Source of the DNA: Qubevirus faecium
Strand: one strand, 5' to 3'
Sequence record: FJ539132.1
DNA: 4,241 nucleotides
Shown here: positions 1,395 to 4,137 of the stretch, piece by piece
Position numbering within the stretch: position 1 is the stretch's first letter
Layout of the letters: each line of letters opens with the position of its first letter
Notes under the pieces: model-generated
The model's database searches: none
Told to the model about the DNA's origin: nothing
Seen by the model: only the letters and a program-made list of their open reading frames with translations
Position numbers and translations under genes: made by a program

Positions 1395-1793
1395 ATGGCA
1401 AAATTAAATCAGGTAACACTTACCAAATTAGGTAAGGCGGGCGATCAGACTTTAACTCTTACTCCACGTGGGGTAAATCCCACTAACGGAGTGGCGTCGC
1501 TGTCCGAAGCTGGTGCTGTACCGGCTCTCGAGAAGCGAGTAACTGTGTCAGTTGCTCAGCCATCCCGTAACCGTAAGAACTATAAAGTTCAGATTAAGCT
1601 CCAAAACCCGACTGCATGCACGAAGGACGCATGTGACCCATCTGTGACGCGTTCCGCGTTCGCGGACCTAACGCTTTCGTTCACGTCGTATTCTACTGAC
1701 GCTGAACGTGCGCTGATTCGCACTGAATTGGCGGCTCTGTTGCAAGATCCTCTGATTGTCGATGCAATCGATAATCTGAACCCTGCATACTGA
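1395..1793 (+). CDS. Major coat (capsid) protein, 132 aa, terminated by a leaky UGA
   Basis: Seen: ATG at 1395 (the track's 1389 start is an upstream in-frame TTG giving MIM...; ATG 1395 gives MAKLNQ...), TGA at 1791-1793, two cysteines in ACTKDACD. Recalled: near-identity to Qbeta coat across PRGVNPTNGVASLS, PALEKRVTVSV, QPSRNRKNYKVQ, CDPSVTR, and C-terminal DAID.LNPAY. Confidence 0.95.
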   Translation: MAKLNQVTLTKLGKAGDQTLTLTPRGVNPTNGVASLSEAGAVPALEKRVTVSVAQPSRNRKNYKVQIKLQNPTACTKDACDPSVTRSAFADLTLSFTSYSTDAERALIRTELAALLQDPLIVDAIDNLNPAY

Positions 1794-2387
1794 GCGGCGT
1801 TATTGGCAGCCTCGTCTAGCGGTGGGGATAACCCAAAGCCAGACGTTCCGGATCGTCCAGACGTCAAACCGCCAGGCGGAACGGGCAGCTATCGCTGTCC
1901 GTTTACCTGTTACCGCCTCGGTAATATCATCGAGGTAGGGCAAAACGGTTCTCCTGACATCTATGCCAGGGGAGACGAGGTCCAGGTTATGTTCGATTAT
2001 GCTCTCGAGGATTTCCTTGGGAACACCAATTGGCGTAACTGGGATCAGCGACTATCAAATTATGATATAGCTAATCGTCGTCGTTGCCGAGGCAATGGTT
2101 ACGTTGACCTGGACGCAACTGCGATGCAGACCGACAGCTTTGTGCTATCCGGTAAGTATCCAGTGCGGAAGGTCAAGTTTCCAGGTGCCTTTGGCGCCCT
2201 CAAGTATCTCCTTAACATAAAGGATGATGCCTGGGTGGACTTGTCCGAGGTAACGGCCTACCGTTCCTATGGAATGGTCATCGGTTTCTGGACGGACTCT
2301 AAGAGCCCGCAGCTGCCGAGTGACTTCACCCAATTTGACAGTACGAATTGTCCTGTTCAGACGGTGATCGTCATACCCTCACTTTAA
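1395..2387 (+). CDS. A1: Read-through minor capsid protein A1 (coat plus C-terminal extension, about 330 aa with UGA decoded as Trp)
   Basis: Seen: the coat frame and the 1803-2387 ORF are the same reading frame (1395 and 1803 are both 0 mod 3); the track's M at 1803 is a TTG inside the extension, not an independent start. Recalled: extension blocks match the Qbeta A1 read-through domain (KPD.P..PD..PPGGTG.Y.CPF, LGNT.WR.WD.RLS, CRGNGY.DLDAT, PGAFG, VIGFW.D, FDFT.FD.T.CP.Q.VIV.P). Confidence 0.85.
1791..1793 (+). promoter_or_regulatory. Leaky UGA stop codon: programmed translational read-through site between coat and the A1 extension
   Basis: Seen: TGA at 1791-1793 is followed by an in-frame open frame of 197 sense codons up to TAA 2385-2387. 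Established: Qbeta coat UGA is occasionally read as Trp to make A1. Confidence 0.85.
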
Positions 2388-2395
2388 GCAACTTA

Positions 2396-2401
2396 AAGGA
2401 G
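2396..2401 (+). promoter_or_regulatory. Shine-Dalgarno sequence (AAGGAG) for the replicase gene
   Basis: Seen: AAGGAG at 2396-2401, 5 nt upstream of ATG 2407. Confidence 0.75.
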
Positions 2402-2402
2402 A

Positions 2403-2422
2403 TAGCATGTCTAAGACAGCTA
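2403..2422 (+). promoter_or_regulatory. Coat-protein translational operator hairpin covering the replicase start codon (8-bp stem, bulged A2407, 3-nt loop UAA 2412-2414)
   Basis: Seen: UAGC-A-UGUC (2403-2411) pairs with GACAGCUA (2415-2422); the unpaired bulge A is the A of the AUG at 2407-2409. Recalled: the Qbeta operator has the same 8-bp stem, bulged A and 3-nt loop, and coat dimers bind it to repress replicase translation. Confidence 0.75.
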
Positions 2423-4137
2423 GTCACAGAAAGAAAATTACTCACCTATTGAGTAAGGTCGACATCGACTTCGAAGACGACATCCATATGTCTATCGCCA
2501 ATGATCTTTTTAAGGCCTTTGGCGTTGCACCACTTACGTCAGCGGAGCAGTGTATCAACACTCCGTTCCCTGACACTTCGATGACTGCTGATGCATTTCG
2601 CATCGCGTATCTGCGGTCAGAGATCCTTAGTAAGTATAGTGCGCACCCTCTCGGTATTGATACCGAAGCAGTAGCTTGGGAGAAGTTCCTAGCTGCTGAA
2701 GAGGGCTGTAGACAAACGAACGAACGACTGTCGCAGGCTAAGTACCATGACAATTCCATTTTGTCATGGGGCGAGCGTGTTATCCACACTGCTCGTCGAA
2801 AAATACTTAAGCTTATAGGCGAGTCTGTTCCGCTCGGGGATGTGGCGCTGCGCTGCCGATTTTCTGGCGGCGCGACGACCTCGGTTAACCGTTTACACGG
2901 CCACCCGTCGTGGAAGCATGCCTGTCCGCAGGATGTTACCAAACGCGCATTCAAATACCTACAAGCGTATAAAATGGCTTGTGGTGACATCGTAGACTTA
3001 CGTGTCAATGAGGTGCGCACTTCGAATAAAGCAGTCACTGTTCCAAAGAACAGTAAGACCGATCGTTGCATTGCCATCGAACCCGGATGGAATATGTTTT
3101 TCCAACTGGGTGTCGGTGCGGTGCTACGCGATAGGTTGCGCCTTTGGGGGATTGACCTTAATGATCAATCCATCAATCAGCGCCTCGCACGCGATGCGTC
3201 ACAGCTTGACCATTTGGCCACTGTTGACTTATCCGCAGCAAGTGATTCAATCAGCCTTAAGCTGGTGGAGTTACTACTACCGCCTGACTGGTTTGGCGTC
3301 CTGACCGATCTCCGATCGGATCAGGGTATCCTACCTGATGGGCGTGCCGTTACCTACGAGAAAATATCCTCCATGGGTAATGGCTACACTTTCGAGCTTG
3401 AGTCGCTCATATTTGCAGCGATCGCTCGGAGTGTGTGCGAGTTACTGGATCTTGACCAATCAACTGTCAGCGTGTACGGAGATGATATAATCATCGATTC
3501 CCGTGCTGCTGCAACCCTTATGGATGTGTTCGAGTACGTTGGGTTCACCCCTAACAGAAAGAAGACCTTTGTAAGTGGTCCCTTTAGAGAGTCGTGCGGA
3601 AAGCACTGGCACTCTGGGGTTGATGTAACGCCTTTTTACATACGCCGCCCAATACGTTGCCTAGTCGACATGATACTTGTTCTGAATAGTATCTATCGGT
3701 GGGGCACGATTGACGGCGTATGGGATCCTAGGGTGCTGCCCGTATACCAGAAGTACGTGAATATGCTGCCGAGAAATTGGCGGCGTAACACGATACCTGA
3801 TGGTTACGGAGACGGCGCTCTCGTCGGATTGGCTACAACGAATCCGTTTGTTATAGTCAAGAATTTCTCGAGACTATACCCGGTATTAGTTGAAGTCCAG
3901 AAGGACGTCAAGCGTCACGAGTACGGCAGTTATTTATATGCCATGCTACGCGACCGCGAGACACGTTACAATCCCTTCCTGCGTGTCGCAGATGGGACTG
4001 GGTTTGATGAAGCACCGCTAGCTACTAGCCTTCGTCGCAAGACAGGTCGGTACAAAGTGGCGTGGATTCAGGACAGTGCCTTCATCCGGCCCCCGTATTT
4101 TCTTACGGGACTTCCCGAGGTGAAGCTTGCTAGCTAG
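2407..4137 (+). CDS. RNA-dependent RNA polymerase, replicase beta subunit (576 aa)
   Basis: Seen: ATG 2407 with SD, TAG stop at 4135-4137; palm motifs in frame: motif A TVDLSAASDSI (3220-3252), motif B SSMGNGYTFELESLIF (3367-3414), motif C YGDD (3475-3486). Recalled: N-terminus MSKTAS and many blocks (GIDTEAVAWEKFLAAE, CRFSGGATT, NKAVTVPKNSKTDRCIAIEPGWNMFFQLG, YEKISSMGNGYTFELESLIFA, FRESCGKH, TIDGVWDPR, IPDGYGDGALVG) match Qbeta replicase. Confidence 0.96.
   Translation: MSKTASHRKKITHLLSKVDIDFEDDIHMSIANDLFKAFGVAPLTSAEQCINTPFPDTSMTADAFRIAYLRSEILSKYSAHPLGIDTEAVAWEKFLAAEEGCRQTNERLSQAKYHDNSILSWGERVIHTARRKILKLIGESVPLGDVALRCRFSGGATTSVNRLHGHPSWKHACPQDVTKRAFKYLQAYKMACGDIVDLRVNEVRTSNKAVTVPKNSKTDRCIAIEPGWNMFFQLGVGAVLRDRLRLWGIDLNDQSINQRLARDASQLDHLATVDLSAASDSISLKLVELLLPPDWFGVLTDLRSDQGILPDGRAVTYEKISSMGNGYTFELESLIFAAIARSVCELLDLDQSTVSVYGDDIIIDSRAAATLMDVFEYVGFTPNRKKTFVSGPFRESCGKHWHSGVDVTPFYIRRPIRCLVDMILVLNSIYRWGTIDGVWDPRVLPVYQKYVNMLPRNWRRNTIPDGYGDGALVGLATTNPFVIVKNFSRLYPVLVEVQKDVKRHEYGSYLYAMLRDRETRYNPFLRVADGTGFDEAPLATSLRRKTGRYKVAWIQDSAFIRPPYFLTGLPEVKLAS
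3475..3486 (+). other. RdRp catalytic motif C (YGDD) within the replicase
   Basis: Seen: TAC GGA GAT GAT in the replicase frame (codon offset 356 from ATG 2407). Established: YGDD is the catalytic motif of levivirus replicases. Confidence 0.9.

Follow-up and report, generated by a model that had tools for sequence, protein, structure and literature searches.

A probable Qβ-type coat-protein operator on the replicase start codon of a group-IV Qubevirus genome

The stretch of DNA analysed here, referred to throughout as the window, is 4241 nt long and constitutes a complete Qubevirus genome in plus-strand orientation, as judged from its open reading frames (ORFs) and from homology. The genus Qubevirus, formerly Allolevivirus, comprises the Qβ/SP/FI group of phages. 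On the plus strand the ORF list gives the maturation protein A2 at 52–1374, followed by the coat protein gene at 1395–1793, which encodes 132 amino acids, closes on a leaky UGA codon (1791–1793) and supplies the predicted trans-acting repressor of the hairpin described below. The A1 read-through protein, likewise on the plus strand, ends at a UAA codon (2385–2387), an ORF end which agrees with the annotation of A1 in relatives. The replicase β-subunit gene, the proposed target of regulation, occupies 2407–4137 on the plus strand and encodes 576 amino acids; its start at 2407 corresponds, by homology, to the replicase starts annotated in SP, NL95, FI and Qβ. Inside the replicase gene the minus strand holds an ORF of 211 amino acids (window positions 2442–3077), which is probably a mechanical by-product, as such phages are not known to translate their minus strand.

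The deposited genomes nearest to the window at the nucleotide level are those of the FI strain HB-P24 (FJ539133; 83.8% identity), NL95 (83.3%) and SP (82.3%), and nucleotide similarity to the Qβ genome is patchy only. Amino acid identities of the replicase are 90.5% to HB-P24, 90.1% to NL95, 86.6% to SP and 84.3% to FI, with Qβ at 56.7% and MX1 and M11 also at about 57%. Because of these nucleotide and replicase identities to the nearest genomes, the window is classified, by sequence, as a new lineage inside the SP/FI/NL95 group (group IV, Qubevirus faecium). Phage, viral-contig and metagenome collections yielded nothing closer to it. A scan of viral contigs with the 14-mer CATGTCTAAGACAG returned 120 loci, one of which is a true relative (L010, which is FI), and the others were rejected as chance matches in DNA-phage contigs. 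Searching the viral contigs by replicase gave FI and distant Fiersviridae at no more than 45% identity only, the latter being left out of the covariation analysis because their coat proteins differ. When metagenomes were scanned with AGGAGNNNGCATGTCWAAGACAGC, the yield was a single SP/BR1-like fragment (L214) plus two fortuitous matches. On two unrelated metagenome contigs (L215, 358–381; L216, 8525–8548), AGGAG-N3-GCATGTC(A/T)AAGACAGC is found at an apparent gene start (MSKTA...); these matches are probably fortuitous, their lower stems being unpaired and the contigs lacking similarity to the window.

At the replicase start, window positions 2396–2422 read AAGGAGAUAGCAUGUCUAAGACAGCUA. This segment opens with a Shine-Dalgarno (SD) element on the plus strand, AAGGAG (2396–2401), which is read directly from the sequence and separated by a 5-nt spacer from the replicase AUG (2407–2409). 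Over the AUG lies the operator hairpin (2403–2422, plus strand), delineated by minimum-free-energy (MFE) and centroid folds, pair probabilities, a count of its geometry and covariation. The lower stem (2403–2406 with 2419–2422) is UAGC/GCUA and the upper stem (2408–2411 with 2415–2418) is UGUC/GACA, together forming eight Watson-Crick pairs in a 4+4 arrangement, capped by the 3-nt loop UAA (2412–2414), in which A2413 corresponds to A+7 and A2414 to A+8. Between the two stems A2407 (A+1), the first base of the AUG, is bulged, with a pairing probability of 0.00 in a fold of 1300–2750, and the U2408 and G2409 of the same codon are paired in the upper stem. A preliminary description of this DNA had placed here an 8-bp stem, a bulged A and a 3-nt loop, with the bulge being the A of the replicase AUG; this proves exact to the nucleotide at 2403–2422, with A2407 unpaired and heading the ORF at 2407–4137.

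The hairpin is both the MFE and the centroid structure of 2396–2422, at −6.2 kcal/mol. It is also found in the MFE structure of 2380–2440, the segment whose folding had been put forward as a check, so that a minimum lacking the hairpin did not occur, and the MFE structure of the whole genome (4241 nt) contains it unchanged. Its pair probabilities in the 1300–2750 fold are 0.88–1.00, and the operator taken alone has a folding energy of −6.2 to −6.7 kcal/mol. The stability of the 27-mer is weakly significant (z −1.84), with 14 of 200 shuffles folding as well. Counted as eight Watson-Crick pairs with a bulged A and a 3-nt loop ending in A, the exact geometry occurs once in the window, at 2403, while 0.0025 occurrences are expected per dinucleotide-shuffled genome; a chance hairpin was rejected on this comparison. 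A scan of the whole window against Rfam at E ≤ 1 returned no family, and no curated family covers the operator.

Directly upstream, a second hairpin on the plus strand (2378–2401) combines the end of A1 with the replicase SD. It is composed of CUC-A-CUUUAAG, a CAA loop and CUUAAAG-GAG, as supported by folds, shuffles and RNAalifold, and houses the UAA stop codon of A1 (2385–2387, plus strand), 19 nt upstream of the replicase AUG, in its 5' arm. The AAGGAG element in the 3' arm is paired with 2378–2384 in all folds, including the whole-genome MFE structure, with a probability of at least 0.98. With −8.3 kcal/mol and z −4.54, and with none of 200 shuffles folding as well, this SD/stop hairpin is the more stable of the two hairpins and departs further from chance than the operator. 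An equivalent is present in 10 of 10 Qubevirus genomes folded, with compensatory changes in the RNAalifold consensus, and in FI the SD hairpin uses a different pairing, CUCC...GGAG. The earlier statement that the operator stem limits access of the ribosome to the start despite the strong SD therefore needs to be divided: the stem does cover the AUG, but the SD lies outside it, in the separate hairpin at 2378–2401. The placement of the stop codon suggests to us that a ribosome ending A1 read-through there could briefly open the hairpin and expose the replicase SD.

Conservation was assessed by comparing the replicase start regions of the window and 14 other Qubevirus genomes (15 in all). A homologous hairpin placed on the replicase AUG is present in every one of the 15, the inner six pairs and the bulged A being essentially fixed, and the loop reads UAA or AAA throughout, its last two A's (including A2414) being invariant. 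The two outer pairs covary, as U-A/A-U/C-G and A-U/U-A respectively. Thus the lower stem is UAGC/GCUA in the window, HB-P24, SP, BR1 and BR8, AAGC/GCUU in NL95, UUGC/GCAA in FI, AUGC/GCAU in Qβ-like strains and CUGC/GCAG in MX1 and M11. Across the eight distinct sequences 98.4% of cells are paired, a level which none of 500 shuffles reaches and which includes MX1 and M11 after manual removal of two extra 3'-side nucleotides misplaced by MAFFT, a correction that favours pairing in both rows. Slid-register controls gave 16–55% paired. Two of the eight pairs show double changes (8 cells), with a covariation score again reached by 0 of 500 shuffles, and the RNAalifold consensus recovers the operator hairpin. 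Covariation supports the lower stem only, because six of the eight pairs do not vary; the invariant inner stem also encodes Met-Ser-Lys-Thr, so that coding constraint contributes to its conservation.

Departures from the common form are seen in three phages of the genus. The SP operator (L122, 2438–2457) contains a C·A mismatch in its upper stem, AUGCCAAAGACA, and its codon 2 specifies Pro, not Ser. The mismatch is common to three SP records (L122, together with L217 and L218 around 204–223) and is therefore not a sequencing error, and the SP hairpin is predicted to be much weaker, at −2.6 kcal/mol with a probability of about 0.6–0.7. The operators of MX1 (L133, 2347–2368) and M11 (L134, 2348–2369) carry the two extra 3'-side nucleotides, and in their MFE structures the A of the AUG pairs with a U, a C bulging on the 3' side instead. 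The bulged A is consequently not conserved genus-wide and not every feature of the geometry is obligatory, since SP tolerates the mismatch and MX1 and M11 can pair the "bulged" A. The bulged A is reported to be dispensable for coat-protein binding (Witherell and Uhlenbeck, 1989), with which its pairing in MX1 and M11 would fit.

The coat protein encoded in the window is 78% identical to that of Qβ, and its matches in the PDB, with E-values of 1e-58 to 1e-64, are Qβ capsid and coat-operator structures including 4L8H. Alignment columns corresponding to Qβ V32, T49, S51, Q65, K67, N30, R59, K60, K63, D91 and the Q54–N61 loop are invariant; these are the positions counted as RNA contacts in the Qβ coat-operator complex. 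The Qβ operator is described in the secondary literature as an 8-bp stem with a 3-nt loop whose last A is essential. In the same accounts this adenine (A+8) occupies an adenine pocket of the coat made up by Ser, Gln and Lys; Tyr89 of the two monomers provides the stacking surface for A+1 and A+7; and the Q54–N61 loop touches the lower stem. Binders of Qβ coat protein that were selected in vivo carry a UAA loop closed by a C-G pair on a 4-bp upper stem; the window has both the UAA loop and a C2411-G2415 closing pair. At the position of Qβ Tyr89 there is Phe in the window (1656–1658, codon 88 in mature-protein numbering), SP, FI and HB-P24, a residue which preserves an aromatic platform for stacking. 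A separate observation concerns NL95, where coat codons 87–89 (L123, about 1658–1670) specify Gly-Ser-Arg in place of the Ala-Phe-Ala of all other group-IV strains. These codons lie at the position of the operator-stacking Tyr89/Phe, and the segment resembles a one-base deletion followed by a restoring insertion, so that either the frameshift was compensated or the record is faulty.

Geometry, homology and covariation, together with a cognate coat protein whose RNA-contact surface is conserved, make it very likely that the hairpin at 2403–2422 is the translational operator of Qβ type through which the coat dimer represses the replicase gene. The features of the Qβ type that are found here are the location on the AUG, the 4+4 stem, the 3-nt loop, A+8, the bulged A+1, the covariation and the cognate coat protein. 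The likening of this geometry to the Qβ coat-protein binding site in the preliminary description thus holds up, as it agrees with the published operator and is homologous and covarying with the hairpins of Qβ, MX1, M11, SP, NL95 and FI. The operator and its mechanism are already known and belong to textbook knowledge.

Within the genus, the Qβ operator (AUGCAUGUCUAAGACAGCAU; complex PDB 4L8H) occupies the same place on the replicase AUG, again with the A bulged, and shares the 4+4 bp stem, the UAA loop, the C-G closing pair and identical inner six pairs, and the coat protein partner, at the 78% identity given above, keeps the adenine pocket. The two differ in that the outer pairs are swapped (U-A and A-U in the window, A-U and U-A in Qβ), the SD is stronger in the window (AAGGAG) than in Qβ (AAGGAU), the coat protein of the window has Phe in place of Tyr89, and the complement within the coat gene falls on the SD in Qβ but on the 3' flank of the operator in the window. 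The closest likeness at this site is to the FI strain HB-P24, whose SD and hairpin are 100% identical and which is nearly identical between −45 and +20 relative to the AUG, although the genomes as a whole are 83.8% identical in nucleotides. The upstream SD/stop hairpin is shared with HB-P24 and with the group-IV Qubeviruses SP, NL95, FI, BR1 and BR8, which differ from the window at the operator through the C·A mismatch of SP, other outer pairs in NL95 and FI, and an AAA loop in BR1, BR8, NL95 and SP.

Outside the genus, the MS2/R17 operator (TR) is comparable in being a hairpin on the replicase start with a bulged purine and a loop adenine held in a pocket of the coat dimer, and in its dual role of repression and assembly nucleation. 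The MS2 operator has a 4-nt loop and 2 bp between bulge and loop. An MS2-type operator was rejected for the window, in which the loop is 3 nt and the upper stem 4 bp. Published descriptions give the MS2 operator a larger loop and a different stem length, and state that wild-type MS2 coat protein needs substitutions at residue 89 to accept the Qβ operator.

In reviews, operator hairpins at the replicase start are described as repressing replicase once coat protein accumulates and as nucleating encapsidation. The sequences compared here show the hairpin structure, how it is conserved and covaries, and its cognate coat protein; coat binding and repression would follow by homology with these systems. 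Early in infection, ribosomes would occasionally initiate at the AUG at 2407 by means of the AAGGAG at 2396–2401. As coat protein (1395–1793) accumulates, a coat dimer would bind the hairpin, recognising the 8-bp stem, the 3-nt loop and, above all, A2414, with the bulged A2407 and A2413 presumably stacking on the Phe that takes the place of Tyr89. By holding the start codon in the stem, the bound dimer would exclude the 30S subunit, so that replicase synthesis would be switched off late in infection. The coat-operator complex would probably also serve as a high-affinity nucleation site for packaging.

Other explanations of the hairpin were weighed against this one. The invariance of six of the eight pairs, which lie in or beside codons 1–5, might be taken to mean that the hairpin is a by-product of conserved N-terminal coding (MSKTA) and a conserved UTR, with no selected structure. 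This is scarcely credible and is largely refuted by the lower stem, in which the 5' partners of the covarying pairs belong to the untranslated spacer, while their 3' partners fall on the last position of codon 5 and the opening position of codon 6, and in which the compensating changes include a Ser codon-family switch from AGU to UCU. Furthermore, G2415 and A2418, the synonymous third positions of Lys-3 and Thr-4 within the stem, do not vary among ten genomes, whereas most of the gene behaves differently, with 37.5% of comparable replicase sites invariant for the Lys-3 type and 11.9% for the Thr-4 type. Taken together, covariation and invariant synonymous sites speak against a chance origin of the hairpin as well as against a coding artefact, and the low chance expectation of the geometry (0.0025 per genome) also tells against a by-product. 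A hairpin acting solely as a packaging or assembly nucleation signal, without translational control, would be in keeping with the Qβ virion model, in which 33 stem-loops including the operator contact coat dimers alike. It is very improbable in the present case, since this is the sole stem-loop of the exact geometry in the window and it lies on the replicase AUG in every Qubevirus examined; binding at the AUG would necessarily block initiation, and the two roles are not mutually exclusive.

It is also improbable, if less remote, that the hairpin acts mainly independently of protein, the stem occluding the start codon so that replicase would need upstream coat or A1 translation, with coat binding secondary. 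Such an action would draw on the pairing of U2408 and G2409 of the AUG, with a probability of about 1.0, on the folding of the ribosome-binding site (RBS) segment 2376–2424, which contains both hairpins, at −15.0 kcal/mol with z −3.29, and on an 8-bp coat-gene complement that abuts the operator. Yet the operator alone, without the SD, contributes just −6.2 to −6.7 kcal/mol, and neither the SD hairpin nor the long-range pairing is part of it. A purely structural role would leave unexplained the invariant UAA/AAA loop (A+7, A+8) and the conserved coat pocket, and in Qβ the replicase gene is expressed with the coat start removed. The coat-protein operator thus remains the preferred reading of 2403–2422.

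The coupling of replicase translation to coat translation is a distinct matter. The preliminary description had taken limited ribosome access at the operator stem as consistent with such coupling, a reading that is not well supported: in MS2 the coupling is ascribed to pairing of the replicase RBS with coat-coding RNA (the Min Jou interaction; Licis et al., 1998), and in Qβ obligatory coupling is disputed, Jayant, Priano and Mills having reported that Qβ replicase expression need not be coupled to coat translation. Coat coupling in the window, if any, would stem from predicted long-range pairing. A tentative partner on the plus strand, GUCACAGA (2423–2430), lies directly 3' of the operator and is complementary to UCUGUGAC in coat codons 83–85 (1641–1648, plus strand), forming eight perfect Watson-Crick pairs at the only complement site in the window. 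The pairing has a probability of about 0.93 in the 1300–2750 fold and is predicted in sub-genomic folds of six of six group-IV genomes. It is found in three of five full-length MFE structures, those of HB-P24, SP and FI, and is absent from those of NL95 and the window. Variation in the helix is restricted to changes from A-U to G-U, with no compensatory covariation, and the site flanks the RBS, covering neither SD nor AUG. The likeness to the Min Jou interaction of MS2 consists in a coat-gene segment complementary to the replicase initiation region as a possible route of coupling; the difference is that the complement in the window lies 3' of the operator, off the SD and AUG, and is missing from the window's own full-length MFE structure.

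In group III (Qβ, MX1 and M11), the partner of coat nucleotides +246 to +257 is the replicase SD region itself. In Qβ (L127) the coat segment at about 1591–1601 is complementary to 2332–2345, and M11 presents a perfect 12-bp match between coat gene and SD that covaries with respect to Qβ. The coat-SD duplex yields −12.6 to −19.0 kcal/mol in the three group-III phages, versus −2.6 to −6.6 kcal/mol in the window and five other group-IV genomes; the group-IV coat segment pairs with the 3' flank of the operator at −12.7 to −13.7 kcal/mol. A speculative reading of these values is that control of the replicase start has been rewired in the SP/FI/NL95 lineage relative to Qβ, MX1 and M11. Coat codons 83–86 lack the SD complementarity seen in group III and match the 8 nt 3' of the operator instead, and the SD is sequestered by the local hairpin with the A1 stop codon. 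On this doubtful account, initiation would be coupled to A1 termination or to a coat-dependent operator clamp, not to direct unmasking of the SD by coat translation. The group III/IV difference and the SD/stop hairpin may already have been described (Beekwilder et al., 1995/1996; Licis et al., 1998).

The value of the present assignment lies in locating the operator in a new Qubevirus lineage, which is useful for genome annotation and for obtaining a cognate RNA tag/coat-protein pair or a packaging signal for virus-like particles (VLPs) of this strain. Nothing biologically new is gained, since both the operator and the way it works are textbook material and the sequence is identical to that of the FI strain HB-P24. 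The coat-gene complements that seem to lie on opposite sides of the operator in groups III and IV, together with the conserved SD/stop hairpin, are of modest specialist interest and, if real and unpublished, would bear on the timing of replicase translation.

The coat-gene segment has a further complement within the genome. Positions 1637–1652 in the coat gene can form 16 bp with 3981–3996 in the distal replicase gene at −30.4 kcal/mol, and this pairing is chosen in the full-length MFE structure of the window. The same complementarity is strong in NL95 (−26.4 kcal/mol) and weaker in HB-P24, SP, BR1 and FI, where mismatches are uncompensated. The distal segment, GUCGCAGA, resembles the proximal partner of the coat gene at 2423–2430.
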